DNA of 64,000 bases from NCBI GenBank assembly GCA_028717245.1, contig JAQUOD010000003.1, positions 85,636 to 149,635 of the forward strand, in the 5' to 3' direction. Both the position numbers and the translations under genes were made by a program. Of the stretch, positions 5,226 through 35,655 are shown one piece after another (the stretch's first letter is position 1; every line of letters begins with the position of its first letter). Source of the DNA: Candidatus Omnitrophota bacterium. Lineage in GTDB: Bacteria > Omnitrophota > Gorgyraeia > Gygaellales > Profunditerraquicolaceae. The notes beneath the pieces are model-generated. The model saw nothing but the letters and a program-made list of their open reading frames with translations. It had not been told where the DNA came from and ran no database searches.

Positions 5226-5254
5226 TTGACAAGAGCGATTAAATATAGTATTTT
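5226..5254 (+). promoter_or_regulatory. Candidate sigma70-type promoter for hydrogenase-associated operon (TTGACA-17-TATTTT)
   Basis: TTGACA at 5226-5231, 17-bp spacer, TATTTT at 5249-5254. Confidence 0.3.
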
Positions 5255-5329
5255 AGAGTCACATTTTATTTTTTGAGAGGGTTATCTTGTGATAGTTTTC
5301 ACAATATCCCGCCCAACAAATTCTCCGTT

Positions 5330-6391
5330 ATGCACCAGATATATTATATTGAATCCAATCAGTTAGAGACTCTTTTCCAGAAATTAAAAAAGAGCTATAA
5401 GGTATTCTCTCCGGTAGCTAAAGGGCCGAATTACACCGCAAAGGCGGATTATTCCTATAAAGGCCTCGCCGAAGGCGAAAGCCCCGTGTTTAATCCTTAC
5501 CGGGCAGTTGAACCCCTTAAGTCCTTCTTTACCTATGCCCAGGATCAGGCCGCAGAATATTTTAACCGCGACGAACCGGTTTTGGATTCAATGCAGGTTA
5601 TAGTATTCGGCGTTAAAAGTTGTGATATAGCAGGCCATAAGGTGCAGGATTTTGTATTCTTAGAAGGCGTAGAGGTAGATTCTCTATACCGTTTAAGGCG
5701 GGACAACACAATACTTATTTCCGGTGACTGCACTGATTTCAAGGATGTCTGTCATTGTCTTGCCTGGGATATACTGCCGCACCCCACAGAGGGTTTTGAC
5801 CTTAATTTCTCGCCTCTGAATGATGGGTATTTAGTAGAGGTGGGTTCAAAAAAAGGCGAAGGCCTTATCCAACAATACCAGGAATATTTCACTCCGGCAA
5901 AGGAAACCCAGATAGCAGGCCGGCGGGTAAAAAGGGAGAATCTTATCGAGCGCCTTAAAAGGCATCTTTTACCGCAAAAATTGGTTTCCAAGGATAGTGT
6001 GCAAAGATTAATGAGAGAGGGCTATAACCTGGATACCTGGCAGCAGTTTATGCTTACATGCGTCGAATGCGGCGGATGTAATCTTATCTGTAATACCTGT
6101 CATTGTTTTCTCCTGGCGGATAAGAAAGAAGGTAATATTAACAAGAAAGTCAAAGTCTGGGATTCCTGTCAATACGCAAATTTCACCAGGGTCGCCGGAG
6201 GGGCCAACCCTTTAAAGACCAGGACGCAGAGGTTAAGAAACAGGTTCCTGAAAAAATTCGATTTTTTCGTGGATAATTTAGGCATGCCTGCCTGCTGCGG
6301 ATGCGGCAGGTGTATTGAGGTCTGCCCCGGTAAGATTGATATCCGGGAAGTTTTAAAAGACGTAGCCAAAAAGCTTAGTGCCTCCAAATGA
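5330..6391 (+). CDS. Sulfhydrogenase beta subunit / anaerobic sulfite reductase subunit A (HydB/AsrA)-like Fe-S protein
   Basis: Cys clusters CVECGGCNLICNTCHC and CCGCGRCIEVCP; size and position before PyrK-like gamma subunit; start uncertain (ATG 5330 preferred over TTG 5273). Confidence 0.55.
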   Translation: MHQIYYIESNQLETLFQKLKKSYKVFSPVAKGPNYTAKADYSYKGLAEGESPVFNPYRAVEPLKSFFTYAQDQAAEYFNRDEPVLDSMQVIVFGVKSCDIAGHKVQDFVFLEGVEVDSLYRLRRDNTILISGDCTDFKDVCHCLAWDILPHPTEGFDLNFSPLNDGYLVEVGSKKGEGLIQQYQEYFTPAKETQIAGRRVKRENLIERLKRHLLPQKLVSKDSVQRLMREGYNLDTWQQFMLTCVECGGCNLICNTCHCFLLADKKEGNINKKVKVWDSCQYANFTRVAGGANPLKTRTQRLRNRFLKKFDFFVDNLGMPACCGCGRCIEVCPGKIDIREVLKDVAKKLSASK

Positions 6392-7203
6392 AGAATATTT
6401 ATCGGCCCATAGAAGCTGTGCTTGAAGATATCATTACCGAGAGCCCTACAATAAAGACATTTGTTTTAAGGCCCAAAGAGCCCTTTGAATTCAGGACCGG
6501 GCAATTTATCGAGTTGACTTTACCCGGGGTGGGCGAAGCGCCTTTTACGCCTTCATCTGACCCTAACCTGAAAGACAAGATAGATGTGACCATAATGAAT
6601 GTGGGTGAGGTCACCGCGCTTTTACATTCCAGCGCCAAAAATATATCCTTAGGCATACGCGGCCCCTACGGCAAGGGGTATCCCCTGGATAAATTTGAGG
6701 GTAAAGATATTTTAATCGTCGGCGGAGGAGTGGGGCTGGCGCCTTTACGTTCTTTATTATTCAGCCTATTTGCCGATATTGATAAATACAATAAAGTAGT
6801 ATTGCGTTACGGCGCGCGTACTGCCAATGACATCATATATAAGGAAGCCATTCCGCATTGGGCAAAAAAGAAGAAGGTTGACCTGGTTACGACAGTGGAT
6901 ATGGGTAGCCCCGAATGGAAAGGAAACGTCGGCTTAGTAACCACGATATTAAAGGACCTGCCCCTGGATTTGAAGAAAGCAATTTGCGTTGTCTGCGGCC
7001 CGCCCATCATGATGAAATTCGTCACTTTGAAATTACTGGACTTAGGGTTTAATCCTAAAGACATATACCTGTCTATGGAAAAGAATATGTCCTGTGGCCT
7101 GGGTAAATGCGGGCATTGCCGTATCGGCAGTTATTACATTTGTAAGGACGGCCCGGTGTTTACTTATGAGCAGTTAAAGGATTTGTACGATATATGGGAT
7201 TAG
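6388..7203 (+). CDS. Sulfhydrogenase gamma subunit / AsrB / PyrK-like FAD-NAD(P)-binding oxidoreductase with C-terminal 2Fe-2S
   Basis: RTGQF flavin motif, GGGVGLAP NAD(P) motif, C-terminal CGLGKCGHC...C cluster. Confidence 0.75.
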   Translation: MKNIYRPIEAVLEDIITESPTIKTFVLRPKEPFEFRTGQFIELTLPGVGEAPFTPSSDPNLKDKIDVTIMNVGEVTALLHSSAKNISLGIRGPYGKGYPLDKFEGKDILIVGGGVGLAPLRSLLFSLFADIDKYNKVVLRYGARTANDIIYKEAIPHWAKKKKVDLVTTVDMGSPEWKGNVGLVTTILKDLPLDLKKAICVVCGPPIMMKFVTLKLLDLGFNPKDIYLSMEKNMSCGLGKCGHCRIGSYYICKDGPVFTYEQLKDLYDIWD

Positions 7204-7207
7204 ATAG

Positions 7208-7699
7208 ATGAAACGTTTATTTGTCGACTTAGACATCTGTAACCAGTGCAAAGATTGCAGCGCATTCTGCGATTATTTTTATCATCCGCAGAATAACGGG
7301 ATCACTTCTTTGCGCGAATATGCCACCTTTGCTACTATCTGCCGGCATTGCGAAGAGGCGCCCTGCGTAAATTCCTGTTATCATAATGCCTTGGAACGCT
7401 CAAGCGACGGTCACATTAAACGTTATAAGATGCGCTGCACCAGCTGTAAATCCTGTTCTGTAGCTTGTCCCTTCGGGATAATCTTTCAGGATTTCATCCT
7501 ATATCTAGACTCCAGGTGTGATTACTGCGTAGGCAAGAGCGCTAAGTTGCCTAAGTGCGTAACCAGCTGCCCCCATAAGGCCATAGAGATTAAAGAAATA
7601 GAAGAGGATTTGGAGAAAAATATTTATTTTGTAGGCGAACATCTGGCTGTGCATACGCGTAAGTGGTCGAAAGAAGACTTGCAGCCAAAAAAGAGATGA
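7208..7699 (+). CDS. Polyferredoxin-like 4Fe-4S cluster protein
   Basis: Four Cys-rich motifs (CNQCKDCSAFC, CRHCEEAPCVNSC, CTSCKSCSVACP, CDYCVGK...C...CP). Confidence 0.6.
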   Translation: MKRLFVDLDICNQCKDCSAFCDYFYHPQNNGITSLREYATFATICRHCEEAPCVNSCYHNALERSSDGHIKRYKMRCTSCKSCSVACPFGIIFQDFILYLDSRCDYCVGKSAKLPKCVTSCPHKAIEIKEIEEDLEKNIYFVGEHLAVHTRKWSKEDLQPKKR

Positions 7700-7705
7700 C
7701 AAGTT

Positions 7706-7782
7706 CGTTATAGCGTTATAGGGTTATAGCGTTATAGCGTTTGTCAACACAGGTAGCCCGATAACGCAATAACGAAATAACG
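7706..7782. repeat. Intercistronic period-8 inverted-repeat array: (CGTTATAG)x4 then (ATAACG)x3
   Basis: cgttatagcgttatagggttatagcgttatagcgtt ... gataacgcaataacgaaataacg; second half is reverse complement of first. Confidence 0.7.
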
Positions 7783-7787
7783 AAAAT

Positions 7788-8702
7788 ATGCTAAAATTAT
7801 TTTTTCAGTATTTAATATTTCCCGGTTTTCTTTTTAGTGCCTGCGTAGGCTTAATCGCCGGATGGATAGATAGAAAAGTCAGCGCCCGCATCCAGTGGCG
7901 GGTAGGCCCGCCCTGGTATCAGAATTTTGTGGATATCGTGAAATTATTAGGTAAGGAGACCATTGTGCCTGAAGGGGCAAAACTAACCTTTTTATTCTCG
8001 CCCTTTTTAGGCCTATTAAGTTTGATTTTAGTAGCAACAATCTTGGGATTGAATATGTATTCTGCTCCGGCAGGCTTTAGCGGAGATATCATTGTAATCT
8101 TATATCTTTTGACTGTCCCTGCGCTGGCAGTAATCATGGGCGCTTCTTCTTCCAGGAACCCCTTGGCCTCCATTGGTGCCTCACGAGAGATGAAACTGGT
8201 TTTAGGATACGAATTGCCGTTTATATTAGCCGTGATTGCGGTAATAATCAGGTCCGAAGGCGCGATAAAAATCGGCTCGGTCTTAGGGCATCAGATAAAT
8301 GCCGGCTCAAATCTGGCATCCTGGTCAGGGGCCCTGGCGTTTCTGGTAGCCATAATTTGTATGCAGGCAAAGTTGGGCCTGGTGCCGTTTGATATGTCCG
8401 AAGCGGAGCAGGAGATTATGGGCGGGGCCTTTATTGAATATTCGGGCCTGCCTCTGGCTATCTTTAAATTGACAAAGGCGATTTTACTTTATACAATGCC
8501 CCTGTTCTTGATCAGTTTATTCTGGGGTGAGGGCTTAAGCATTTTAGCTTTAACAGGTAAATACATCGCCATATTAGTCATCATCATCCTGATTAAAAAT
8601 ACCAACCCGCGTTTACGCATTGATCAGGCATTAAGATTCTTTTGGGGGCCGGTGACTATTTTAGCGGTGATTGCGGTTGTATTAGCGTTGTTTGGTATAT
8701 AA
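7788..8702 (+). CDS. Membrane-bound hydrogenase subunit MbhM / NuoH-HycD-like
   Basis: DRKVSARIQWRVGP NuoH signature; 8 TM helices. Confidence 0.85.
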   Translation: MLKLFFQYLIFPGFLFSACVGLIAGWIDRKVSARIQWRVGPPWYQNFVDIVKLLGKETIVPEGAKLTFLFSPFLGLLSLILVATILGLNMYSAPAGFSGDIIVILYLLTVPALAVIMGASSSRNPLASIGASREMKLVLGYELPFILAVIAVIIRSEGAIKIGSVLGHQINAGSNLASWSGALAFLVAIICMQAKLGLVPFDMSEAEQEIMGGAFIEYSGLPLAIFKLTKAILLYTMPLFLISLFWGEGLSILALTGKYIAILVIIILIKNTNPRLRIDQALRFFWGPVTILAVIAVVLALFGI

Positions 8703-8822
8703 ATGTTAGAATGTTCAAATGTTGTAAAGTTTGAATGTTGTATATGTTTGTATAAATCTTAGAAAACATTTTAACATTAAAACTTAACATTAAAACATTA
8801 TAACTTTATAACATTCTAACAG
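8702..8822. repeat. Intercistronic period-8 inverted-repeat array: (AATGTT)x5 then (AACATT)x5, outer 12 nt perfectly inverted
   Basis: aatgttagaatgttcaaatgttg...ttgaatgttg ... aacattttaacattaaaacttaacattaaaacatta...ataacattctaaca. Confidence 0.7.
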
Positions 8823-8829
8823 TAAAAGC

Positions 8830-9255
8830 ATGGACCTTAAATTAAAAGCATTAACAAAATCAATCTGGGTTTTTCATGCAGCGACGTCTCCCTGCAACAA
8901 TTGCGATATTGAAATCCTGGACTTACTTACTCCCAGGCACGATGTCGAACGCTTGGGGATAGTTTTAGTAGGAAGCGTGCGGCAGGCTGATGCCCTTTTA
9001 GTAACGGGGGTGCCTAATTATAAAACCAAAGAAAGGCTAAAAAAACTCTATGCTCAAGCGCCTAAACCTTGTTTGGTTGCGGCAATCGGCGGCTGTGCCT
9101 GCGGAAGGATAATTTTTCAGGAATCCTATAATAGCCCCTGCGCAGTGGATGAAATAATTCCTGTAGATGTCTATATCCCCGGCTGCCCGCCTAAGCCGGA
9201 GGCAATGATCGCGGGAATCGCAAAGTTGATAAAGAAAGTTAGAGGCGAAAAATAA
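8830..9255 (+). CDS. [NiFe] hydrogenase small subunit MbhJ / NuoB-like
   Basis: Cys ligands SPCNNCD, GGCACG, PGCPP; ~140 aa NuoB fold. Confidence 0.85.
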   Translation: MDLKLKALTKSIWVFHAATSPCNNCDIEILDLLTPRHDVERLGIVLVGSVRQADALLVTGVPNYKTKERLKKLYAQAPKPCLVAAIGGCACGRIIFQESYNSPCAVDEIIPVDVYIPGCPPKPEAMIAGIAKLIKKVRGEK

Positions 9256-9683
9256 TGTCTATAGCGGATGAGATTAAAGATAAATTGGCCGGTAAAATAG
9301 CTCATTGGCATGAGCACTCGGCAAAGAGGATATATTTTTCCATCAATCCTCAGGATATCAGGGGCGCAGTGAGTTTCTTATTCAAAGATTTGGGTTTAAG
9401 GTTTGCTACTGCTTCGGCCCAGGATACGCCGCAGGGCTTAGAGATATTATACCATTTTAGTTTTGATGAGACCGGAGAAATGGTTTCGGTGCGGGTTTTG
9501 ATAGAAGATAAAAAGAATCCCCAGATAGATTCTATCGCCCCGCTTTTTAAGGGCGCAGAGTGGATTGAGCGTGAAGTATGGGAGCTATTGGGAATTAATT
9601 TTATCGGGCATCCGGATTTAAAGAGGTTACTCCTGGCTGATGAATGGCCGGAAAATAAGTATCCATTAAGAAAAGAAAAATAG
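9255..9683 (+). CDS. Hydrogenase subunit MbhK / NuoC-like
   Basis: NuoC-like ~140 aa protein between NuoB-like and NuoD-like genes. Confidence 0.75.
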   Translation: MSIADEIKDKLAGKIAHWHEHSAKRIYFSINPQDIRGAVSFLFKDLGLRFATASAQDTPQGLEILYHFSFDETGEMVSVRVLIEDKKNPQIDSIAPLFKGAEWIEREVWELLGINFIGHPDLKRLLLADEWPENKYPLRKEK

Positions 9684-9759
9684 TTCGTTGAGTTTTTAGA
9701 GTTCATTGGGTTCGTAGAGTTTTAACTCAATAACTCAAGAAACTCAAATAACTCAATAA
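9684..9759. repeat. Intercistronic period-8 inverted-repeat array: (GAGTT)x4 then (AACTC)x4
   Basis: agttcgttgagtttttagagttcattgggttcgtagagtt ... aactcaataactcaagaaactcaaataactca; begins with same AGTTCGTT 8-mer as array at 7701. Confidence 0.7.
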
Positions 9760-9765
9760 ACAAAT

Positions 9766-10962
9766 ATGTCGCACAAAGTTATAATACCAATTGGCCCCTA
9801 TCATCCTCTGCAGGAAGAGCCGGAACTCTTCAGGCTTTATGTAGAGGGGGAGAAGGTAGTGGATATCGATATCGTCTTAGGCTATGTGCACCGGGGAATC
9901 GAAGAACTCTCTGAGCACAAGCATTTTGACCAGGTCCCGTTTCTGGTCGAGCGTATCTGCGGTATCTGTTCCTCTAGCCACCCCTATGCCTATGTGTTGG
10001 CAGTAGAGGATATATTAGGCGGCGAAGCAAAGGTGGTGCCCGAGAGGGCGCTCTATATACGCACGATTGTAGATGAACTGCAGCGTATTCACAGCCATTT
10101 ATTATGGCTGGGCTTAGCCGGCCACTTTATCGGATACAATACCGTCTGGATGTGGGCCTGGAAATACCGCGAGCCGGTATTGGATTGTTTTGAAATGATT
10201 TGTGGTAACCGCAATCATTACGGTATGAGCAAGGTCGGGGGCGTGCGCCGCGATATAAAAGATGAGGATATACCTATATTAAAGAAGGTTATAGATGAGT
10301 TAGCCCCGGCCGTGGACATGTTTAAGGGCGCAGTAATGGATGACCCAGTGATACAGGCAAGGCTTAAGGGAGTAGGTATTTTAACCAGGCAGCAGGCTGT
10401 TGACTGGTGCGTTGTCGGCCCGACGGGGAGGGCCTCGGGAGTAAATATAGATGTGCGCAGGGACGACCCCTACGGCGTATTTGATAGGGTAGACTGGAAT
10501 GTAATTATAGAAAAAGACGGGGATGTATTCGCCAAGACAAGAGTCCGGATCTTAGAGCTTTATGAATCAATAAGCATTATCCGTCAATGCCTGAATAAAA
10601 TGCCTAAGGGTGAAATCGACGCCGATATAAAGGATATACCTGCCGGAGAAGGCATAGGCCGCGTTGAGGCGCCCAGGGGAGAGTGTTTTCATTACGTAAG
10701 AAGCGACGGCACGAACAGGCCGATCAGGCATAAAATCCGCGCCCCCAGTTTTATGAACGTAGCTTCTAATAAGGTCGCTGTAATCGGAGGCACCATATCA
10801 GATGCGGCCATTACCCTGGCAGCGGTTGACCCTTGTTACTGTTGTACGGAGAGGCTGGCGGTTTTAGACAGGGGTAGCGATAAAAAGGTGATGAACGGCT
10901 GGGACCTGATAAAATTATCCCAGGAAAAGACGGAGAAGTTGAAAAAAAGCCGTAAGTTGTAA
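9766..10962 (+). CDS. Group 4 [NiFe] hydrogenase large (catalytic) subunit MbhL / NuoD-HycE-like
   Basis: N-terminal RICGICSSSH (L1 Ni-Fe ligand motif) and C-terminal DPCYCCTER (L2 DPCxxC motif). Confidence 0.85.
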   Translation: MSHKVIIPIGPYHPLQEEPELFRLYVEGEKVVDIDIVLGYVHRGIEELSEHKHFDQVPFLVERICGICSSSHPYAYVLAVEDILGGEAKVVPERALYIRTIVDELQRIHSHLLWLGLAGHFIGYNTVWMWAWKYREPVLDCFEMICGNRNHYGMSKVGGVRRDIKDEDIPILKKVIDELAPAVDMFKGAVMDDPVIQARLKGVGILTRQQAVDWCVVGPTGRASGVNIDVRRDDPYGVFDRVDWNVIIEKDGDVFAKTRVRILELYESISIIRQCLNKMPKGEIDADIKDIPAGEGIGRVEAPRGECFHYVRSDGTNRPIRHKIRAPSFMNVASNKVAVIGGTISDAAITLAAVDPCYCCTERLAVLDRGSDKKVMNGWDLIKLSQEKTEKLKKSRKL

Positions 10963-10980
10963 GTTTATATTATAGCTAAA

Positions 10981-12651
10981 ATGATAAACTTTTTTTACCC
11001 TTTATTTAAATGGGATAGTTTAAATAGTTTTGTGGTCCTGGCAATAGGTTTATTCTCCGTCCTGACCATAATCTATTCTTTTGGCTTCATGAAAGGAAAA
11101 CAGCGGCTTTTTCAATATTATACCTATATTATCTTAACGGCAGCCGCCTCTGTGTTAGCCGTACTTTCTAACCATCTGGCTTTACTTTTATTGTTCTGGG
11201 GTTTTTTGGGCCTGACGCTTTATCTTCTTGTGAATATGGGCGATAATGCCAGCGCTATAGCCAAAAAGACCTTTATTATCGTAGGCGGTTCGGACGCATT
11301 AATGTTATTGGGCATAGGCATTATTTATTATCTTGCGGGCAGCATGCAGATGGATATGATTAAAATCAGGCCGGATAGCGGCCTAGCAATATCGGCCTAT
11401 CTTTGTATTGCCGTTGCCTGTTTTGCCAAGGCCGGTGCCATGCCGTTTCATTCCTGGATTCCGGATACAGCCAAAGATGCCCCGCTTCCGGTGGTAGCGT
11501 ATCTTCCCGCTGCGCTGGATAAATTATTAGGGATTTATCTTTTGGCGCGGCTCTCCCTGAATTTATTTGTAATGAACAACGGCTTAAATATATTCCTTAT
11601 GGTTATCGGCGCCTTTACTATCGTGGCTGCGGTGATGATGGCTTTAGTCCAGCACAATATGAAGAAACTCCTGGGTTACCATGTGGTTTCACAGGTAGGG
11701 TACATGATTTTAGGTATAGGCACGGGTAATCCTATTGGTATTGCCGGCGGCCTCTTCCATATGCTAAACAACGCAATATATAAATCCTGTTTATTTTTCA
11801 CCAGCGGCAATGTTGAGTATCGCACTAAAACCAGCGAATTAGATGAATTAGGCGGCCTTGCCAGGGCAATGCCCCTTACCTATATATCCGCGCTTGTGGC
11901 CAGCCTTTCGATATCCGGGATTCCGCCTTTTAACGGATTTTTTTCCAAATGGATGATCTATCAAGGAATTGTTGAAATGTTTAAAAGTTCAAATATTTAC
12001 GTGTTTAAAAATCTTTTATGCATGTTATGTTTAATTGCAGCGATGCTTGGAAGTACTTTGACTTTAGCATCATTTATGAAAATAATTCATGCTGTTTTTT
12101 TAGGACAATCGCCTAACATTAAAACATTCCAGCATTCCAACATTTTAACAGAAGTCCGTTGGGCAATGTGGCTTCCCTGCATTATTTTGGCAGGCCTTTG
12201 TATTATCTTCGGCGTATTTGCTGTGCAGCTGCCCATGAAATATTTTATTTTACCCGTCGTGGGCCCGGTTGTTTTTATCGGGGCATGGTATGCGGGCTTA
12301 TCGATGCTACTGATAGTTGTTGCTTTAGCCATAGGTATTTTTATAGTGGGTTTTGGTTTATTAAAGACTTCTCTGCGCCAGGATGTGGCATTCACGGGTA
12401 CAGAATCCCTCGATTTAGAAGAGCACAGGGTCACGGGAACGGAATTTTATAACACTATCAGGGAATTCGGCATTTTTAAAGCGCTTTATAAAAAAGCAGA
12501 GGCAGGATTATTCGATATTTACGAAGGGCTTAAGAAGCTGGTATTTGCCGTATCCGGGGCAATGCAGTATTTACATAACGGCATATTGCCGACATACCTG
12601 GTCTGGTGTTTATTAGGGATGGCGGTTTTATTTTTCTGGTTTTTTAGATAG
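10981..12651 (+). CDS. Mrp antiporter subunit A / NuoL-like membrane subunit (MbhH-like)
   Basis: 556 aa, ~16 TM, NuoL/MrpA family motifs (WIPDTAKDAPLPV, VSQVGYM). Confidence 0.8.
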   Translation: MINFFYPLFKWDSLNSFVVLAIGLFSVLTIIYSFGFMKGKQRLFQYYTYIILTAAASVLAVLSNHLALLLLFWGFLGLTLYLLVNMGDNASAIAKKTFIIVGGSDALMLLGIGIIYYLAGSMQMDMIKIRPDSGLAISAYLCIAVACFAKAGAMPFHSWIPDTAKDAPLPVVAYLPAALDKLLGIYLLARLSLNLFVMNNGLNIFLMVIGAFTIVAAVMMALVQHNMKKLLGYHVVSQVGYMILGIGTGNPIGIAGGLFHMLNNAIYKSCLFFTSGNVEYRTKTSELDELGGLARAMPLTYISALVASLSISGIPPFNGFFSKWMIYQGIVEMFKSSNIYVFKNLLCMLCLIAAMLGSTLTLASFMKIIHAVFLGQSPNIKTFQHSNILTEVRWAMWLPCIILAGLCIIFGVFAVQLPMKYFILPVVGPVVFIGAWYAGLSMLLIVVALAIGIFIVGFGLLKTSLRQDVAFTGTESLDLEEHRVTGTEFYNTIREFGIFKALYKKAEAGLFDIYEGLKKLVFAVSGAMQYLHNGILPTYLVWCLLGMAVLFFWFFR

Positions 12652-12657
12652 GAGAAT

Positions 12658-13179
12658 ATGGAGATTTATCTGCTTTTATTATTTATGATTGTGGCTGCCA
12701 TAGCTGCGATTGAAATCAAGGATATGCTCTCTAGCGTCATTGCCTTGAGCACGGTAGGCCTGGGCCTATGCCTGGCGTTTTTGATTTTAAAGGCGCCTAA
12801 CCTGGCTATTATGCAATTGGTTATTGAGCTCTTATGCCTGATCCTGCTTATCCGCGCCACCATCAACAAGGACCTGCCTCTGGTCAGGGATGGGCGCTGG
12901 CTCTTTAATACTATAGCTAGCGTATTATTTATTGCCGTATTTTTAATTTTTGCTTATTTTGCGCTCCTTGAGCTGCCTCGTTTCGGTGAGCCGATTATGC
13001 GCGTTTCGCAGGAATATATTGCCCGGGGGTTAGAAAAAACCGGTTCGGCTAATATTGTGACGGCAGTCGCCCTTAACTTCCGCAGTTACGATACGTTAGG
13101 CGAGATTGCCGTGCTGGCGACTGCAGTAATAGGCATACTTGCAGTGATGAGGAAGACAGGAAGGATACATGGAAAATAA
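12658..13179 (+). CDS. MrpB-like (DUF4040) membrane subunit
   Basis: small polytopic protein in Mrp module position. Confidence 0.55.
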   Translation: MEIYLLLLFMIVAAIAAIEIKDMLSSVIALSTVGLGLCLAFLILKAPNLAIMQLVIELLCLILLIRATINKDLPLVRDGRWLFNTIASVLFIAVFLIFAYFALLELPRFGEPIMRVSQEYIARGLEKTGSANIVTAVALNFRSYDTLGEIAVLATAVIGILAVMRKTGRIHGK

Positions 13180-13555
13180 GGAAGCAGGGATGGGTATAAT
13201 CGTTAAGACCATTACCCGTTTGACTATCGGCCTGATATTTATCTATGGCATATATGTCAGCCTGCACGGCCATATGCGGCCGGGCGGCGGATTCGCCGGG
13301 GGGCTAATCATTGCGCTTTCTTTTATCCATGTCCTGCTTGCCTTCGGCAAGGATGTTGCCTTGAAGAAATTGAATCAAACATTCCTGTTATCCCTGATGG
13401 CCTTGGCAGCAGCGGTTGTTTTGCTGATTTTAATATCCAGGCCAGCGAATTTAATTATTCTTTCTTTATGCGATATAGCCATATGTTTTACCGTGGGGGC
13501 GGGGTTGTTCATAATTTTTTTGGCTTTAGCTTTGATAAAAAAAGACGGGGCGTAG
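13169..13555 (+). CDS. MnhB/MrpB-like membrane subunit
   Basis: 128 aa hydrophobic, Mrp module context. Confidence 0.5.
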   Translation: MENKEAGMGIIVKTITRLTIGLIFIYGIYVSLHGHMRPGGGFAGGLIIALSFIHVLLAFGKDVALKKLNQTFLLSLMALAAAVVLLILISRPANLIILSLCDIAICFTVGAGLFIIFLALALIKKDGA

Positions 13556-13558
13556 ATT

Positions 13559-13897
13559 ATGATGATATATATATTGTGTTTTATACTTTTTTCTATCGGC
13601 CTTTACGGCGTATTGCGTAAGAGAAACGTCATCAAGATTATCATCGGCCTGGTAGTTATGGATTACGCCGTCAATCTATTCCTGATCCTGGTAGGTTATC
13701 GTTTAAAGGGCCGCGCGCCCATATTTGCCAAGGACCAGGTAATTTTAAATATGGTCGACCCCTTACCCCAGAATTTAGTTTTGACTGCCATGGTCATCGG
13801 CCTGGTTATTACTGCTTTATTGGCGGCTATTGCCATAAGGATATACGAAAAGTACGGTACATTCGATATCACTAAAATAAATAAACTGAAAGGTTAG
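13559..13897 (+). CDS. MrpC / NuoK-like subunit
   Basis: ~110 aa, 3 TM, NuoK-like pattern. Confidence 0.65.
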   Translation: MMIYILCFILFSIGLYGVLRKRNVIKIIIGLVVMDYAVNLFLILVGYRLKGRAPIFAKDQVILNMVDPLPQNLVLTAMVIGLVITALLAAIAIRIYEKYGTFDITKINKLKG

Positions 13898-13901
13898 GTT
13901 T

Positions 13902-15404
13902 ATGCATCAGGTATCGCCGGTATTATTTGTCGCTATTCCTTTAACAGCAGCATTCTTTATTATCCTTTTAGCGAGGGCATTAAAGCAGCTGGAGTATATT
14001 TTTTCTATACTGGCCAGTTCCGTACTTTTTTTGTTATCCTTAAGCGTCTTATTCTTTATACCCAAGGCAACAAATAATATATTTGTTTATAAACTGGGCG
14101 CCTGGCTTCCGGCGCTGGGCGTATCTTTGGCCCTTGACGGTTTGAGCGCTTTAATGCTGGTTACGGTCAATCTGATTAGTTTCTTAGTTACAATATATTC
14201 TTTAGGTTATATGCAACGCTATAGCGACAAATGGAAATTCTCTGCCTTATTTATGCTGATGTTGGCAGGGATGAACGGGATAATTATAAGTGCGGATTTA
14301 TTCAGTATCTATGTATTTTTGGAAGTCGCCTCTATAGCCGGTTATGCCTTGGTTGCTTTTGGCACTGAGTCAGAAGACCTGGAGGCCTCTTTTAAATATG
14401 CGGTGATGGGTTCTGTGGCTTCTATCTTTATTCTCCTGGGCATAGCCATGCTCTATAGTTATACTTCTACCTTGAATATGGCGGATATGGCCGCGGTATT
14501 ATCCGCGAAACCCCAAGGTATGATCATTCGATTTGTAACGGTTTTATTCTTAGCCGGTTTTGGCCTGAAGGCCGCAATAGTCCCTTTTCATGCCTGGCTG
14601 GCGGATGCGCATCCGTCTGCCCCGGCGCCGGTATCCGCAATTCTATCAGGGGTATTTATTAAAACCTCAGGCATATATGCCTTAAGCAGGGTTATTTTTA
14701 ATATCCTGGGAGTTTACGGTAAAGTGCTCTGGGTTTTTATAATCCTGGGGGTATTGTCAATGGTAGCAGGGGCATTTCTGGCAATAGCGCAGAAGGATAT
14801 TAAAAGGATGTTTGCCTATTCTAGCGTCAGCCAGATAGGTTATATTATCTTTGCCCTCGGGATTAACACGCCCTTAGCTATTTTTGCTGCCTTATTCCAT
14901 CTGGTCAATCATGCCTTATTTAAGTCGCTCCTCTTTTTGGATGCCGGCGCAATAGAGTATTCTACCGGCACGCGCCGGCTCGATAAATTAGGAGGGTTAA
15001 GCAGCCGCCTGCCTGTTACGTGCTCCACAAGTTTAATCGGTTCCTTGGCTATTTCGGGCATTCCGCCTTTGGGCGGTTTCTGGAGTAAGTTACTTATTGT
15101 TATAGCAGCAGTCCAGGCGCGCTACTTTGGACTGGCCCTGACGGCAGTGCTGGTGAGTATAATCACCCTCGCTTATTATTTAAAATTCCAGAATTTTACA
15201 TTTTTCGGCAAATCCGAAACCAGCCGGAAGGATATAAAAGAGGTACCCCTGAGCATGAAGATGCCTATGATTATTTTGGCAGTTATCTGCGTATTGAGCG
15301 GGTTATTATTGGCCCCTGCATTCAGGCCTTTTCTTCAGAGGGCAGCCGAGGTTTTATCGTCAGGCAATAATTATCAGAATATCTCCGCGGGTGCAATAAA
15401 ATGA
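13902..15404 (+). CDS. MrpD / NuoM-N-like antiporter subunit
   Basis: 500 aa, ~14 TM, NuoN/MrpD motifs (VPFHAWLADAHPSAPAPVSA, SSVSQIGY). Confidence 0.8.
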   Translation: MHQVSPVLFVAIPLTAAFFIILLARALKQLEYIFSILASSVLFLLSLSVLFFIPKATNNIFVYKLGAWLPALGVSLALDGLSALMLVTVNLISFLVTIYSLGYMQRYSDKWKFSALFMLMLAGMNGIIISADLFSIYVFLEVASIAGYALVAFGTESEDLEASFKYAVMGSVASIFILLGIAMLYSYTSTLNMADMAAVLSAKPQGMIIRFVTVLFLAGFGLKAAIVPFHAWLADAHPSAPAPVSAILSGVFIKTSGIYALSRVIFNILGVYGKVLWVFIILGVLSMVAGAFLAIAQKDIKRMFAYSSVSQIGYIIFALGINTPLAIFAALFHLVNHALFKSLLFLDAGAIEYSTGTRRLDKLGGLSSRLPVTCSTSLIGSLAISGIPPLGGFWSKLLIVIAAVQARYFGLALTAVLVSIITLAYYLKFQNFTFFGKSETSRKDIKEVPLSMKMPMIILAVICVLSGLLLAPAFRPFLQRAAEVLSSGNNYQNISAGAIK

Positions 15405-15898
15405 TAAAGACGCGTATAATCCTGTTTATATTGGCATGGCTAGTTTACCTATTATTAAGCTGGTCCTTGTCTCTGGGGGATTTAATTGCGGGGGTGCTCT
15501 TGGCTTTGACGGTTTCCTGGTTAACCCACGATTTATTTATACAGGATCCCCATATTTTTAAGGATCTTAAGCGCTACCTCTGGTTTATTTATTATATTCC
15601 TTTATTTATCTGGGAATGTATCAAGGCAAATGTTGACAGCGCCTACCGTATAGTGCATCCTGCCTTACCTATACGGCCGGGGATCGTCAAAGTAAAGACT
15701 ACCCTGAAGTCGGATATTGGGTTAGTATTCCTAGCCAATACCCTCACCCTTAAGCCGGGCACTATGACTGTGGATATCGATAAAGAAAATGGTTTTTTAT
15801 ATGTGCACTGGGTTGAGGTTGGGAGTGAAGATATGCGGCAGGCAACAGACATGGTTATCGGCAAGTTCGAACGCATACTGAAGAGGATATTTGAATGA
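15401..15898 (+). CDS. MrpE-like subunit
   Basis: position and size in Mrp order A-B-C-D-E-F-G. Confidence 0.55.
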   Translation: MIKTRIILFILAWLVYLLLSWSLSLGDLIAGVLLALTVSWLTHDLFIQDPHIFKDLKRYLWFIYYIPLFIWECIKANVDSAYRIVHPALPIRPGIVKVKTTLKSDIGLVFLANTLTLKPGTMTVDIDKENGFLYVHWVEVGSEDMRQATDMVIGKFERILKRIFE

Positions 15899-16254
15899 AG
15901 AGGCTGCGCTGGTTTTTGGGGCTAATAATTATTTTATTTATTTTTTCCGCGATTCTGTTTTACCCTTTACCGTCTTTACTGGAATGGCAGTCCGTATTTT
16001 TAAAAAAGGCATTTTTTATCCTGCTTTTCTGCGGCGTATTCTGTTTGTGGCGCGTATTAAAAGGCCCGACCGCCGTGGATAGGGTGGTAGCTATAGATAT
16101 CCTGGGGATTATCATTGTGGGCTTCTGCGCTATTTTAGGCATTCCTACGGGCCGCGACTGGTACATTGATATCGGTATTGCCTGGGCGCTGCAGAGTTTT
16201 ATTTCCATTTTGGCTTTGGCTAAATACCTGGAAGGAAAAAATTTTGAGGAATAA
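15895..16254 (+). CDS. MrpF-like subunit
   Basis: ~119 aa, 3 TM, Mrp module order. Confidence 0.55.
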   Translation: MKRLRWFLGLIIILFIFSAILFYPLPSLLEWQSVFLKKAFFILLFCGVFCLWRVLKGPTAVDRVVAIDILGIIIVGFCAILGIPTGRDWYIDIGIAWALQSFISILALAKYLEGKNFEE

Positions 16255-16260
16255 ATAAAA

Positions 16261-16587
16261 ATGAATGAGATTTTCGGCATGGTTATGATTATGGTCGGTT
16301 TGGGGTTTAATTTTTTAGGTTGCCTGGGGCTGATAAGGCTGCCCGACGTCTATAACCGCTTGCATGCCTCTATCAAATGCGTGACCTTAGGGACCAGCAG
16401 CATACTTTTCGGCTTATTCCTCTATAAAGGTTTTACTGCCTGCGGGGCGAAGGCCCTTTTATGCATATTATTTCTGGCATTAACCGCTCCTGTGTCAGCT
16501 CACGTCTTATCCAGGAGCGCGCATAAATCAGGCGTGAAGCTTTGGGAAAAGTCAGTCTGCGATAAGTACGCAGAAGATAAAAAATGA
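16261..16587 (+). CDS. MrpG-like subunit
   Basis: ~108 aa, MnhG-like hydrophobic pattern. Confidence 0.65.
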   Translation: MNEIFGMVMIMVGLGFNFLGCLGLIRLPDVYNRLHASIKCVTLGTSSILFGLFLYKGFTACGAKALLCILFLALTAPVSAHVLSRSAHKSGVKLWEKSVCDKYAEDKK

Positions 16588-17183
16588 AATATCCCAAACT
16601 AAGAGAATTAAAAGAAGCAATAAGGGCACTCATCAAGGGTCCTTACACTTCTAAGTTTCCTTACCAGCCGCATAAGCCTTTTGAGAGATTCCGGGGAAAG
16701 CCGGAATTCCACGAGAAAGATTGCGTGGGTTGCGGCGCCTGTTTTCAGGTCTGCCCGTCAGGGGCAATCAAGATGGAAGATACCAGAGGCAAGAGGGTCC
16801 TGACGCTGAATTGGGATATGTGCATATTCTGCGGGCAATGCCAGGCCAATTGCATAACCGGTAAAGGCATTATGCTTTCCAATGAATTCGATTTAGCGAC
16901 AACGGGAAAAAGAGGGGAGCTAAAACAGACGATAGAAAAGGAATTTATTGTTTGCTGCTGTTGCGGTGAAAACATTATACCTTACGCGCAGATGCTCTGG
17001 GTAGCCAATAAACTCGGCCCGCTTTGTTTCTCCAATGCTTCGTTGATGCTTTTTTATCTAAAAGACTTAGGACTCGCCCCTGAAACAGAATGCCCTCCTA
17101 AGGAAGGATTCGGATTCCGGCGCGCTGACCGTATAGAAGTCCTCTGCCCCCGCTGCCGGCGCCTAGCTGTGCTCAAATCCTAA
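16584..17183 (+). CDS. 2x[4Fe-4S] ferredoxin subunit MbhN / NuoI-like
   Basis: CVGCGACFQVCP and CIFCGQCQANC motifs. Confidence 0.8.
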   Translation: MKYPKLRELKEAIRALIKGPYTSKFPYQPHKPFERFRGKPEFHEKDCVGCGACFQVCPSGAIKMEDTRGKRVLTLNWDMCIFCGQCQANCITGKGIMLSNEFDLATTGKRGELKQTIEKEFIVCCCCGENIIPYAQMLWVANKLGPLCFSNASLMLFYLKDLGLAPETECPPKEGFGFRRADRIEVLCPRCRRLAVLKS

Positions 17184-17184: not shown

Positions 17185-18384
17185 ATGCTCTCTTCATTAA
17201 AAGTAAGAAATTACCGGCTCTATTGGCTGGGGATGTTTATTTCGCTTATCGGCACCTGGGTCCAGGCAGTAGCCCAGAGCTGGCTGGTATTCCAAATCAC
17301 GGATTCGGCATTTTTGCTGGGGTTTGTGGGCTTCTTAGGTTCCATACCGGTCTTTCTTTTATCTTTATTCGGCGGGGTAGTAGCAGACCGGGTGAATAAA
17401 AAGATTATCCTTCTTTTTACCCAGAGCGCTTTTATGATTCTGGCATTTTTTTTGGCAGCCTTGACGCAGATGAAGGTGATTACACCCGGCCAGATAATGT
17501 TTATCGCGGTATTAAACGGTATGGTTATGGCCTTTGATGCCCCCAGCCGCCAGGCAGTGGTGGTAGAGTTAGTCGGCCGGGAGCATTTATTTAATGCCAT
17601 TGCCCTTAATTCCATAGCTTTTAATTCCAGCCGGATAATCGGCCCGGCTTTAGCCGGCGTGCTCATCGCAGGTATTAGTATGAGCGGATGCTTTTATATA
17701 AACGCCATAAGTTTCCTGCCGCTGATAATTATTCTTTTGTCTATTAAGATCCATAATAACCCCAGGGCCCCGGGGAATAATACAGTGGCGAGAGACCTGG
17801 CCGAGGGCCTGAGGTTTATAAAAAATAGCCGTTTGATATTGGTATTGATTACCATGGTCGGTATCTCCAGCTTATTCGGCATTTCTTATGTTATACTCAT
17901 GCCTGTTTTTGCCGAACGTATATTAAAGGTAGGTGCCGGGGGTTTAGGCATACTGATGTCTTCCAGCGGATTCGGCGCTTTGATTGCGGCATTGGTCCTG
18001 GCGGCCCTGGGGGATTTTAAATATAAAGGCAGGCTCCTCGTTTTTTCTTCCCTAGTATTCTCCCTTGCTTTAATATTATTTTCTTTATCAAAAATATTTT
18101 TGTTATCAGTTATTGCCCTGATGTTGATCGGCTGGGGTTCTGTTATGGCCATAGCGGTAATAAATACCCTCTTACAGGTTAGTGTCAAAGATGAATTCAG
18201 AGGCAGGGTGATGAGCGTATTTATGTTTACCTTTGCCGGCTTTATGCCTTTTGGTAACCTGCTGGCGGGAATCTTATCGCAGGCATGGGGGGTCTCTCTT
18301 ACAGTAATGGTAAGCGGTATTATCTGCGCCATATTTTTTACGGTTATCAACATAGCATATCCGGATATAAGAAGGCAACATTAA
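17185..18384 (+). CDS. MFS transporter
   Basis: 12 TM, MFS loop motif GGVVADRVNKK. Confidence 0.75.
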   Translation: MLSSLKVRNYRLYWLGMFISLIGTWVQAVAQSWLVFQITDSAFLLGFVGFLGSIPVFLLSLFGGVVADRVNKKIILLFTQSAFMILAFFLAALTQMKVITPGQIMFIAVLNGMVMAFDAPSRQAVVVELVGREHLFNAIALNSIAFNSSRIIGPALAGVLIAGISMSGCFYINAISFLPLIIILLSIKIHNNPRAPGNNTVARDLAEGLRFIKNSRLILVLITMVGISSLFGISYVILMPVFAERILKVGAGGLGILMSSSGFGALIAALVLAALGDFKYKGRLLVFSSLVFSLALILFSLSKIFLLSVIALMLIGWGSVMAIAVINTLLQVSVKDEFRGRVMSVFMFTFAGFMPFGNLLAGILSQAWGVSLTVMVSGIICAIFFTVINIAYPDIRRQH

Positions 18385-25026: not shown

Positions 25027-25497
25027 ATGTTAGACCATCTTAAATCTCACCTAAAAGGTAAAGTGGCCATCGTGGGTATCGGCAATACCATGCGTAGTGA
25101 CGATGGGGTGGGGTCAGTTTTGGCCAGCCGCCTCAAAGATAAGGTAGCGTTTAAAGTTTTTGATGTTGGCGTAAGCCCGGAAAACTACTTAGAAAAGATT
25201 ATCAAAGAAGAGCCCGACACTATAGTGATTATAGACGCGGTGGATTTCGGGGCTAAGCCGGGAGAATTCCGGATTCTGGAGGCGCGGGATTTAAAAACAA
25301 CCAATCTCTTTGCCACGCACAATGCCTCTATTTCCTTGACCATAAATTACTTGCAAAGCAATTTAAAGGCGGATATAATTATTTTAATTATTCAGCCGGA
25401 ATCGATTGCTTTCGGGGAAGGATTGAGCCGGGAAGTGGCCCGGAGACTGGATAGGCTGGAGAGTTGGTTTCATGATACAGGCAAAGAAGAGGGATAG
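25027..25497 (+). CDS. hycI: Hydrogenase maturation protease (HycI-like)
   Basis: VAIVGIGNTMRSDDGVG N-terminal protease motif, ~156 aa. Confidence 0.8.
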   Translation: MLDHLKSHLKGKVAIVGIGNTMRSDDGVGSVLASRLKDKVAFKVFDVGVSPENYLEKIIKEEPDTIVIIDAVDFGAKPGEFRILEARDLKTTNLFATHNASISLTINYLQSNLKADIIILIIQPESIAFGEGLSREVARRLDRLESWFHDTGKEEG

Positions 25498-28394: not shown

Positions 28395-28466
28395 GCCGAG
28401 GTAGCTCAGTGGTAGAGCGCGGCCCTGAAAAGGCCGGCGTGGGGGGTCCGATTCCCTCCCTCGGCA
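28395..28466 (+). tRNA. tRNA-Phe (anticodon GAA)
   Basis: Acceptor gccgagg/cctcggc, D-arm tagctcagtggtagagc, anticodon stem cggcc/ggccg with loop ctGAAaa, T-arm ggggg-tccgatt-ccctc; integrase immediately downstream. Confidence 0.75.
28453..28466 (+). repeat. attL core: 14-bp direct repeat TCCCTCCCTCGGCA (3' end of tRNA-Phe)
   Basis: identical 14-mer recurs at 39339-39352. Confidence 0.65.
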
Positions 28467-28499
28467 TTTAAATTTATAAGCATCTCGTAACTATATTAC

Positions 28500-28528
28500 T
28501 TGACAAGTATTTACAAAAATGCTACTAT
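28500..28528 (+). promoter_or_regulatory. Sigma70-type promoter for integrase (TTGACA-17-TACTAT)
   Basis: TTGACA 28500-28505, TACTAT 28523-28528. Confidence 0.5.
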
Positions 28529-28537
28529 TTCCAATAG

Positions 28538-28560
28538 GTGCCAGTGCCCAAATGGTGCCC
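28538..28560 (-). promoter_or_regulatory. GGCAC(A) triple direct-repeat operator-like site in int leader
   Basis: ggtgcc agtgccc aaatggtgccca = revcomp tGGGCACcatttGGGCACtGGCACc, between -10 and int start. Confidence 0.45.
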
Positions 28561-28587
28561 ATAGAAACATGAAAAAGTGAGGAAATT

Positions 28588-29613
28588 GTGGCAACTCTCC
28601 GTCGGAGAAACGAATCATACTTTGTTGACTACCGGATTAACGGTAGGCGCTTCCGTAAAAAAGTAGGTCCTTCCAAAAGAATAGCCGAGCTTGCCCTAAA
28701 AGATATAGAAGTTAAAATAGCTAAGGGTGAATTAGGTTTTTCACCAAAAGACAATTCTCTAGAGAAGCTATTTGAAGAATATCTTAAATACTCCAAGATA
28801 AACCACGCTCCGAATACTTACGAAAGATACAGGGGGATTCTTGATAACTTCAAGTCTTTCCTTGCTACTCGCCCCTATGTAAATAAGATTTCTCATTTAG
28901 ATCCTAAGTTATTTGAAGATTATAAGCATTTCCGTAAAGAGGGGAAAGCTGAAGATAAAACAGTTAATATAGAGCTTCAGATGCTCCGGGGTATGTTTAA
29001 TTTGGCACGGAAGTGGGGTTATTCTCAAAATAATCCCACAGAAGGCGTAACTTTCTTTAGAATTACCAAAACCCAGGAGCCAAGATTTCTCTCAAAAGAA
29101 GAATGCGAGAAGTTGCTAAATAATTGTGGAGAAGAGTTATATCCTATATTCTTTACTTTTCTTAACACTGGCATGAGAAGAGGTGAGTTGCTTAATCTTG
29201 AATGGAAAGATATAGATTTTAGCAGGAAGAGACTACAAATAAGAGCTAAAGAGGATTGGGAGCCTAAAACCTCAGAACGGTATATTCCTATGAACGATAG
29301 CTTGATAAAGGTACTAAAGAAGCATAAGGAAAAGAGTAGAGGCAGTTTAGTATTTACTGATAATAAAGGCGAGAAAATTCATAAAAACGAAATTAGGAAG
29401 GAACTTATTCGGATCACAAAGAAAAGCGCTTTTCCCGATGTAACAAAATTGCATAGTCTCCGGCATACTTTTGCAAGCCATTTGGTTATGAGCGGAGTAG
29501 ATTTGCCCACAGTAAAAAAACTAATGGGGCACTCAGACATAGAGACAACTATGATTTATTCTCACTTAGCGGATGAACACGTAGATAGGGCAGTAGAAAA
29601 ACTGGAGTTTTAG
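28588..29613 (+). CDS. int: Tyrosine-type site-specific recombinase (phage integrase family)
   Basis: C-terminal catalytic HSLRHTFASHLV...GHSDIETTMIYSHL (R..HxxR..Y) motifs; GTG start. Confidence 0.9.
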   Translation: MATLRRRNESYFVDYRINGRRFRKKVGPSKRIAELALKDIEVKIAKGELGFSPKDNSLEKLFEEYLKYSKINHAPNTYERYRGILDNFKSFLATRPYVNKISHLDPKLFEDYKHFRKEGKAEDKTVNIELQMLRGMFNLARKWGYSQNNPTEGVTFFRITKTQEPRFLSKEECEKLLNNCGEELYPIFFTFLNTGMRRGELLNLEWKDIDFSRKRLQIRAKEDWEPKTSERYIPMNDSLIKVLKKHKEKSRGSLVFTDNKGEKIHKNEIRKELIRITKKSAFPDVTKLHSLRHTFASHLVMSGVDLPTVKKLMGHSDIETTMIYSHLADEHVDRAVEKLEF

Positions 29614-29630
29614 TAGAGTGAGCTCTGAGA

Positions 29631-30425: not shown

Positions 30426-30616
30426 ATAAAGCTTGCAAATCTAAGATAAATGTTGTATGCTTATATCAGTTGAAGATTGCGGTGTAGGTTATCTGTTGTT
30501 TCTACTGGCGGGAATGACAGTCAAGCCTTGCCGCATAACACCAGCCTAAAAATACCAACCAAAAGTTGGTATTTTTTGTTTTATAGAGAGAAAAACAGTT
30601 CAGTTATTAAAAATTA

Positions 30617-30633
30617 GGCACATTTTGGGCACA
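30617..30633 (+). promoter_or_regulatory. GGCACA-TTTT-GGGCACA direct-repeat operator-like site
   Basis: aGGCACAttttGGGCACAg upstream of ORF 30708. Confidence 0.45.
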
Positions 30634-30707
30634 GAAAGACAGGTGATATTCATAACTTATTGAAAAGTAATAGATAAGAGTCGATTGATGTAGAACGAGG
30701 TGTTCTA

Positions 30708-31469: not shown

Positions 31470-31512
31470 TAAGCACATTAAAAGATAGAGGAGCATTTAA
31501 CTTGAACCAATT

Positions 31513-33199: not shown

Positions 33200-33203
33200 A
33201 ATA

Positions 33204-35640: not shown

Positions 35641-35655
35641 TGTTTAGGGAAAATT

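Follow-up and report, generated by a model that had tools for sequence, protein, structure and literature searches.

The hun operon of an Omnitrophota bacterium: a predicted Mrp-linked group 4 [NiFe] hydrogenase with a putative NAD(P)(H)-linked input module

The hun operon and its predicted subunits

A stretch of 64,000 nucleotides from a Candidatus Omnitrophota bacterium (GenBank assembly GCA_028717245.1, contig JAQUOD010000003.1, positions 85,636 to 149,635 of the forward strand; this whole stretch is called the window below) holds 16 co-oriented, tightly packed open reading frames (ORFs) at window positions 5273-17183 on the + strand, with intergenic gaps of -11 to +127 nt. From its sequence, we identify this region as the hun operon, hunA to hunP, predicted to encode a Hun-type, Mrp-linked [NiFe] hydrogenase of group 4 with 16 subunits. 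As read from its genes, Hun combines a membrane arm of the kind found in membrane-bound hydrogenase (MBH) as well as in membrane-bound sulfane reductase (MBS) with a genuine Ni-Fe core and with a soluble arm of the formate hydrogenlyase (FHL) type, tipped by a flavoprotein like the beta/gamma subunits of soluble hydrogenase I (SHI). We propose that Hun is probably, though by no means securely, an NAD(P)(H)-linked, ion-coupled Mrp-type [NiFe] hydrogenase with this SHI-beta/gamma-like module as its electron input; the NAD(P)H coupling that an earlier note on this DNA had suggested appears plausible.

The complex itself has been described before. Glass et al. 2021 (bioRxiv 10.1101/536078) gave the name Hun to a 16-subunit respiratory complex whose putative operon they reported in metagenome-assembled genomes (MAGs) of Atribacteria, Omnitrophica, Elusimicrobia, Bacteroidetes and Firmicutes and in Kosmotoga isolates. 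In that account, HunA and HunB are likened to the anaerobic sulfite reductase proteins AsrA and AsrB, a ferredoxin is assigned as HunC, the hydrogenase module consists of HunEFGP, and HunD and HunH-O are P-module- and Mrp-like. HunG has the signature CGIC-CYCC in place of CGIC-CxxC and is assigned to group 4g by HydDB, yet is distant from other 4g sequences, and some MAGs carry a molybdopterin-binding insertion between HunB and HunC (bioRxiv 10.1101/536078). The window holds the same 16 genes in the same order as in this description, HunG has the clade-specific CGIC (L1) and CYCC (L2) motifs (RICGICSSSH and DPCYCCTER), and all 16 proteins match those of the Kosmotoga locus (L081) collinearly at 33-64% identity. 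Surveys of Omnitrophota have also listed a 'group 4g, Mrp-linked' membrane-bound hydrogenase in the phylum; group 4g itself is polyphyletic and clusters only loosely. The literature thus already covers the cluster with its unusual order, Asr/SHI-like genes and CYCC motif, and its presence in Omnitrophota. A search for later literature on 'Hun' returned only the original preprint, and the cultured atribacterium A. laminatus lacks NiFe hydrogenases.

Genes were called from Pfam and NCBIfam family matches, and solved homologues from matches to the Protein Data Bank (PDB). Downstream of the first three genes, hunD (7788-8702) encodes a NuoH/MbhM/HycD-like membrane subunit (Pfam NADHdh, 1.4e-60), hunE (8830-9255) a NuoB/MbhJ-like small subunit with the proximal [4Fe-4S] cluster (Oxidored_q6), hunF (9255-9683) a NuoC/MbhK-like subunit (Complex1_30kDa, 1.4e-28) and hunG (9766-10962) the [NiFe] large subunit (Complex1_49kDa and NiFeSe_Hases). 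The proximal-cluster ligands of HunE (Cys 22, 25, 89 and 119) are 100% conserved. HunG has ERICGICSSSH near its N terminus (L1, RICGIC) and DPCYCCTER near its C terminus (L2, DPCYCC), the latter followed by a 35-residue tail, and Cys 65, 68, 357, 359 and 360 are 100% conserved in the 83 aligned sequences. The extra L2 cysteine, C359 in C357-Y-C359-C360 (DPCYC codons at 10831-10845, residues 355-359), is invariant in these 83 sequences and almost confined to the clade: DPCYCC occurs in 120/120 close homologues compared with 4/150 representatives of 50%-identity clusters, with Kosmotoga among the four.

Of the solved large subunits, MbhL matched HunG best (6cfw_L, 3.5e-85, 289 bits), followed by HycE (1.3e-75), with MbsL far lower (2e-50). 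The best non-Hun cluster representatives were at most about 48% identical to HunG. According to the earlier note, the proposal would fall if the large subunit grouped with a characterised Ech/Coo subgroup; the MbhL match and the distance to all non-Hun representatives speak otherwise. Because the four Ni-Fe cysteines and the C-terminal tail are present, and hycI, hypA and nikR genes lie in the window, we take HunG to be a true hydrogenase subunit rather than one of the MBS type.

The membrane arm begins with hunH (10981-12651), a NuoL/MrpA/MbsH'-like gene for an antiporter-like subunit (Proton_antipo_M). About 70 residues are missing from the N terminus of HunH, but its long C-terminal extension is retained; its PDB alignments run from reference residue ~75-110 to the C terminus of NdhF, Nqo12 and MbsH'. 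It is followed by hunI (12658-13179), a fusion of MbhD and MbhE (MrpA C-terminal/MrpB-like; Pfam MbhD and MbhE), by the MnhB/MbhF-like hunJ (13169-13555; MnhB, 2.6e-16) and by the MrpC/NuoK/MbhG-like hunK (13559-13897; Oxidored_q2, 2e-26). Then come hunL (13902-15404), for an MrpD/MbhH-like antiporter-like subunit (Proton_antipo_M/N) whose best solved match is MbhH (6cfw_H, 9.6e-86), the MrpE/MbhA-like hunM (15401-15898; MNHE, 3.6e-42), the MrpF/MbhB-like hunN (15895-16254; MrpF_PhaF, 4e-16) and the MrpG/MbhC-like hunO (16261-16587; PhaG_MnhG_YufB, 4e-24). Every gene that the earlier note had named was found where it placed it, with strong family matches, and the translation bears out its group 4 [NiFe] hydrogenase with a full Mrp module and both Ni-Fe motifs. 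Some details need amending: the Mrp-type part is present with eight genes rather than seven, the 'polyferredoxin' is a ferredoxin gene for a 163-aa HycB-like protein with 16 conserved cysteines, and the order M-J-K-L, Mrp, N does depart from Pyrococcus mbhA-N, but what was called non-canonical is the canonical order of the Hun operon.

The three electron-input genes open the operon. The first, hunA (5273-6391), encodes an AsrA/sulfhydrogenase-beta-like Fe-S protein (Fer4_22, 7e-28); because the first ~20 residues read from TTG 5273 are unconserved, its start may be ATG 5330 instead. HunA has P. furiosus SHI beta as its solved match (9nez_B, 1.3e-36), and 15 of its cysteines are 100% conserved in 57 sequences. 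The next gene, hunB (6388-7203), encodes an AsrB/sulfhydrogenase-gamma-like flavoprotein (FAD_binding_6, NAD_binding_1 and DHODB_Fe-S_bind) with P. furiosus SHI gamma as its solved match (9nez_C, 7.9e-53). Over 61 sequences, Kosmotoga among them, HunB conserves GGGVGLAPLRSLL, VCGPPIMMKF and the cysteines of its 2Fe-2S motif C-x4-C-x2-C...C (Cys 236/241/244/252). Across Omnitrophota, Kosmotoga and the metagenomic locus L083, GGGVGLAPLR, CGPPIMM, GEAPFTPSS and the four 2Fe-2S cysteines are invariant or nearly so at an overall identity of ~50%, a pattern that clearly points to purifying selection on the nucleotide and flavin motifs. The Arg of the HunB 'YGAR' motif is also conserved and aligns with 'TAR' of the NADPH-using SHI gamma, which gives a weak hint towards NADPH.

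NCBIfam models place both proteins near characterised families, below their equivalog cut-offs. HunA matched ShyB (2e-50), HydB (2e-43) and AsrA (3e-35; 122 bits against a cut-off of 323), each under its cut-off, and the top score of HunB was to AsrB (223.6 bits against 289); both proteins are far under the ShyB/ShyC/HydB/HydG cut-offs. The leading AsrB score, together with the historical tie of SHI beta/gamma to S0 reduction, could be taken to mean that HunAB act in sulfur-compound reduction, in an AsrAB- or sulfhydrogenase-like way, with the H2/membrane module linked to sulfite or polysulfide. We consider such a role highly improbable: Pfam scans found no AsrC or siroheme subunit in the operon or the window, the scores of HunA and HunB all lie under the Asr equivalog cut-offs, and the Ni-Fe site of HunG is complete, unlike that of the sulfane reductase MBS.

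The third input gene, hunC, and the gene that ends the operon, hunP, encode FHL-like proteins. The 163-aa product of hunC (7208-7699) is a HycB-like ferredoxin (Fer4_11) whose best PDB match is E. coli FHL HycB (7z0s_B, 5.7e-14), and its 16 cysteines, each at least 97% conserved, would hold up to four [4Fe-4S] clusters. The last gene, hunP (16584-17183), encodes a HycF/NuoI/MbhN-like protein with two [4Fe-4S] clusters (Fer4_7 and other Fer4 families), matched best by HycF (7z0s_F, 6.6e-19), ahead of MbsN and MbhN. Besides its two [4Fe-4S] motifs, HunP has an extra CxxC...CxxC pair (C124, C127, C188 and C191; 16953-17156) that is 100% conserved. HMMER places similar cysteines of E. coli HycF opposite this pair, which may form an extra metal site or a docking element for HunC.

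Conservation and remodelling of the operon

A scan for the large subunit in one genome per GTDB species yielded 356 stretches encoding a relative; the best 80 of these are 78-90% identical to the large subunit and nearly all labelled Omnitrophota. The 120 best database homologues are 82-90% identical, and the named ones are Candidatus Omnitrophota. Every one of the 52 Omnitrophota loci with sufficient upstream DNA keeps the block hunABC-DEFG; the automatic test scored 51/52, the exception being L057, where hunA lies just beyond the search window. The flanks in Omnitrophota are often syntenic too, with bacA-pfkB-yqeY upstream and genes for a major facilitator superfamily (MFS) transporter and a peptidoglycan-binding protein downstream, so conservation within this phylum is, taken alone, weak evidence of linkage.

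More distant relatives were reached through the 50%-identity cluster representatives, which led to Kosmotoga and to the metagenomic loci L083-L085. The decisive case is Kosmotoga olearia (Thermotogota; CP001634, Kole_0561-0574), in which the large subunit is 57% identical and the same 16 genes occur in identical order, mostly overlapping. The flanks are unrelated to those of the window: helix-turn-helix regulators and a HAD hydrolase lie upstream and the maturation genes hycI-hypF-hypC-hypD follow hunP, whereas in the window hunP is followed by an MFS gene and the maturation genes lie scattered. In published K. olearia transcriptomes, Kole_0560-0574 were grouped as one hydrogenase, and their RPKM (reads per kilobase per million) values co-vary over four temperatures, including those of Kole_0573 (HunB) and Kole_0574 (HunA).

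The metagenomic relatives differ in composition. In L083 (1666-11209), the large subunit is 56-59% identical, is fused to NuoC and has CYSC as its L2 motif, and a 535-aa molybdopterin-binding-domain protein is encoded between HunB and HunC; this locus seems to connect Hun with the '4b + SHI-beta/gamma + Fdh-like' clusters reported elsewhere (PMC13582414). In L084 (5808-12011), on a contig with Rnf and type-9-secretion genes, the large subunit is 48% identical with CTGC as L2. This locus encodes HunABC, NuoH/B/C, the large subunit and HunP but neither antiporter-like nor Mrp proteins. In its HunB, the nucleotide motifs GGGVG and CGPP are gone, and the FAD motif and the 2Fe-2S cysteines remain. 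An archaeal-type relative, L085 (47% identical), is without HunAB. Because the block is kept in the 52 Omnitrophota loci, in Kosmotoga with its unrelated flanks, in L083 and in L084, we assign the beta/gamma-like genes and the ferredoxin gene to the operon. The separate organisation of the beta/gamma-like genes, or their placement beside unrelated genes, which the earlier note had named as grounds for abandoning its proposal, was seen in none of these lineages.

In contrast to the input module, the membrane arm varies. The 49 complete Omnitrophota hun loci comprise 15 like the window, 14 with an added PhoU-domain gene, 11 with this gene and a third antiporter-like gene, and nine short forms that have one antiporter-like gene (two in one case) and lack the small Mrp subunits, while HunABC-DEFG-P is constant through all 49. 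We conclude that the predicted invariant unit is the HunABC input module plus the catalytic core, and that the membrane arm is apparently remodelled freely, with a full Mrp set, an added PhoU protein, or a third, a single or no antiporter-like gene.

Such changes separate close relatives whose large subunits are ~80% identical (for example L003:11805-13199 and L051:11807-14142); loci with a varied membrane arm include L032, L039, L044, L045, L049, L051, L057, L062 and L067. The PhoU-domain protein, of ~205 aa, is encoded between hunG and hunH in 34/49 Omnitrophota loci with a complete downstream part (for example L013:9166-9783, L003:11134-11808 and L051:11193-11810) and is absent from the window and Kosmotoga operons. 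Separately, Omnitrophota HunA proteins fall into two divergence classes relative to that of the window, ~41-48% and ~52-77% identical (for example in L005, L007, L013 and L014), and HunB stays 66-86% identical in the same loci.

Electron donor and energetics

We compared Hun with related systems. MBH of P. furiosus (group 4d, 6CFW) provides the best solved match for both HunG and HunL and has Mrp-type small subunits, and the principle of redox-to-ion coupling is presumably common to the two complexes. MBH differs in that it has 14 subunits (mbhA-N), one antiporter-like subunit, an L2 motif CLSC rather than CYCC and no HunABC, with ferredoxin docking directly at MbhN; the other gene order, the two antiporter-like subunits and the presence of HunABC place Hun outside MBH. 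E. coli FHL-1 (group 4a, 7Z0S) resembles Hun in its pairs HycB~HunC and HycF~HunP and in its long soluble arm bearing a substrate-oxidising module. FHL ends in FdhF, has its large subunit fused to NuoC and lacks Mrp small subunits, whereas Hun ends in an FNR-type flavoprotein; with no molybdopterin-family match by Pfam in 5273-17183, we did not assign Hun to FHL or to groups 4a-4b.

The beta/gamma subunits of P. furiosus SHI (group 3b, 9NEZ) are the closest solved homologues of HunA and HunB, with the same Cys patterns and FAD/NAD(P) motifs. SHI is unlike Hun in being cytoplasmic, in pairing beta/gamma with group 3 large and small subunits and in having no membrane arm. The large subunit of the window is of the Complex1_49kDa/group 4 type, which places it outside group 3b (SHI/SHII); the ShyA model matched it at 1.9e-11, over the N-terminal motif only. 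P. furiosus MBS/Mbx (6U8Y) shares with Hun the two antiporter-like subunits, and HunH aligns with MbsH'; MbsL, unlike HunG, has no Ni-Fe site and reduces sulfane sulfur, and the four present and conserved Ni-Fe ligands of HunG set Hun apart from this type. Membership of AsrABC was likewise rejected, as there is no AsrC-like gene and the AsrA and AsrB scores are below cut-off. Last, in some group 4b clusters that also encode a Cys-less Fdh-like protein, homologues of SHI beta/gamma have been interpreted as NADPH modules (PMC13582414, 2026); these clusters share the SHI-beta/gamma module with the window operon, which lacks the Fdh-like protein and the NuoC fusion.

In the mechanism that we propose, HunB, a flavoprotein of the FNR fold that would carry FAD, a [2Fe-2S] cluster and a site for pyridine nucleotides, would exchange hydride with NAD(P)(H). 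Electrons would pass from NAD(P)(H) to the HunB FAD and [2Fe-2S] cluster and on through HunA, HunC, HunP and HunE to the Ni-Fe site of HunG, by way of the [4Fe-4S] set of HunA, four clusters in HunC, two in HunP and the proximal one in HunE, and 2H+ and H2 would be interconverted at the NiFe site. The layout would be that of formate hydrogenlyase with a SHI-beta/gamma-like NAD(P)H module replacing formate dehydrogenase. Turnover at the HunG/HunE/HunD interface would be coupled, as it is in MBH, to H+ or Na+ movement via HunH, HunL and the small Mrp subunits. Reduced ferredoxin might find a further point of entry at exposed HunC or HunP clusters. We favour the NAD(P)H path because HunB is the only subunit besides HunG with a recognisable substrate site, and its motifs are conserved.

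Ferredoxin is the main competing donor. Under this alternative, Hun would be a ferredoxin-dependent, H2-evolving, Na+/H+-translocating hydrogenase in which HunABC serve as an Fe-S wire and ferredoxin dock and HunB retains its nucleotide site only as a relic or for regulation. This is the inference of Glass et al. (bioRxiv 10.1101/536078) and agrees with the HydDB description of group 4g; the closest solved large and antiporter-like subunits are those of the ferredoxin-dependent MBH, and L084 keeps the module though the NAD motifs of its HunB have decayed. The energy of electron transfer from ferredoxin to H2 would also suffice for a full Mrp pump, a better energetic fit. We nevertheless judge it rather unlikely, because the NAD(P)/FAD motifs of HunB are kept from Omnitrophota to Kosmotoga and L083 at the identity given above, which argues that the nucleotide site is in use. 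In addition, MBH takes ferredoxin directly at MbhN without any HunABC-like module, and the solved homologue of HunAB, SHI beta/gamma, is the NADPH-oxidising part of SHI.

The energetics constrain how an NAD(P)H-linked complex could run. Electron transfer from NAD(P)H to H2 (E0' -320 versus -414 mV) is ~18 kJ/mol uphill at 1 bar H2 and becomes modestly downhill only at pascal-level H2. Hun would therefore be expected to operate near equilibrium and reversibly. At very low H2, it could release H2 from NAD(P)H while exporting few or no ions, or do so at the expense of the ion gradient; with abundant H2, it could oxidise H2, form NAD(P)H and export ions. Taken one step further, Hun may be a reversible, ion-gradient-coupled NAD(P)H:proton oxidoreductase, with one module each for oxidising NAD(P)H (the flavoprotein), for hydrogenase activity and for Mrp-type pumping, and thus a functional analogue of complex I in which H+/H2 replaces quinone and a SHI-beta/gamma-type module was independently recruited; we offer this fuller version tentatively, as a possibility somewhat short of even chances.

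Several observations weigh against NAD(P)H as the donor. A full Mrp pump on an NAD(P)H input is energetically awkward unless the complex runs in the uptake direction or at very low H2, because NAD(P)H-driven H2 evolution on its own mostly cannot power ion export. Ferredoxin has been inferred as the donor to HunABC (bioRxiv 10.1101/536078), and the group 4g label of HunG is taken from the literature (HydDB). The degenerate NAD motifs of L084 HunB imply that HunABC can persist without an intact nucleotide site, and the hun operon of K. olearia is weakly expressed in pyruvate fermentation, where an [FeFe] hydrogenase is dominant.

The energetic difficulty would disappear if Hun used both donors. 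In such a confurcation-like scheme, ferredoxin at HunC/HunP and NAD(P)H at HunB would together yield H2, or the reverse, with the ferredoxin half paying for the NAD(P)H half and for pumping. A branched Fe-S network with a SHI-gamma terminus has been proposed for the related group 4b clusters (PMC13582414), and the four clusters of HunC exceed what a linear wire needs. We think this scheme improbable, as no subunit resembles a known bifurcating flavin/cluster site, HunB being of the simple FNR/PyrK type, and no third terminal module is encoded in the window, a molybdopterin-like protein occurring only in L083-type variants.

Maturation genes, neighbouring DNA and significance

Genes for hydrogenase maturation and nickel supply lie in the window on the + strand, unlinked to the hun operon: a hycI-type maturation endopeptidase at 25027-25497 (Pfam HycI, 2e-19), the nickel metallochaperone gene hypA at 55204-55575 (HypA, 1.4e-18) and the nickel-responsive regulator gene nikR at 61179-61592 (NikR_C and RHH_1). 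Their positions and dispersal agree with the earlier note, as does its remark that the window has no hypBCDEF cluster: tblastn found no HypF, HypC or HypD homologue in the window, and Pfam scans found no Hyp domain besides HypA in its + strand ORFs of at least 110 aa. The C-terminal tail of [NiFe] large subunits is the usual substrate of HycI-type endopeptidases, and the window HycI, 31% identical to the Kosmotoga HycI that is encoded directly 3' of hunP, would presumably cleave the tail of HunG.

Upstream of hunA, a sigma-70-like site, TTGACA-17-TATTTT (5226-5254, + strand; 10/12 matches), is no more than a candidate promoter because such sites are no commoner in the region than in shuffled sequence (34 found versus 33 expected). 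The promoter/terminator scan, whose counts equalled the shuffled expectation, found no terminator-like site in the three larger intergenic gaps. At the other end, an MFS_3-family transporter gene (17185-18384) starts 1 nt past the hunP stop and is perhaps co-transcribed with the operon; an MFS gene follows hunP in most Omnitrophota loci and not in Kosmotoga.

Two further regions of the window stand out. At 28395-39000, a tyrosine integrase gene (28588-29613) and ~10 kb of low-GC DNA (35-38% versus 42-46% elsewhere in the window) come after a tRNA-Phe gene (28395-28466); among the genes there are those for an AbiU2-HEPN/peptidase protein (31637-33199), a MauJ-like protein and a SpoVG-like protein. 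The region has the look of a mobile element that has integrated here and may carry defence genes. At 39736-51409, a Fur-family regulator gene precedes a run of Fe-S/redox maturation-type genes, encoding DUF5320, two NifX/NifB-type 'Nitro_FeMo-Co' domain proteins, MetK, a methyltransferase, two MinD/ParA-ferredoxin fusions, a CoA-binding protein, a pyridine-nucleotide-disulfide oxidoreductase, DUF2099, NifU, an MTHFR-C-terminal-like protein, Mrp/NBP35 and a radical SAM protein.

The published ferredoxin reading passes over the conserved NAD(P)-binding flavoprotein HunB. If the NAD(P)H reading is true, Hun would be the first case of a hydrogenase that is bound to the membrane, translocates ions and is coupled directly to NAD(P)H, which would bear on the redox balance of fermenters and syntrophs in H2-controlled sediments and on how complex I gained its NADH module. 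K. olearia is a cultured carrier of hun, so that the chemistry can be tested directly. Should Hun indeed work as an analogue of complex I, carriers such as Omnitrophota, Atribacterota and Kosmotoga would have in it a direct link from their pyridine-nucleotide pool to H2 and to the membrane potential.

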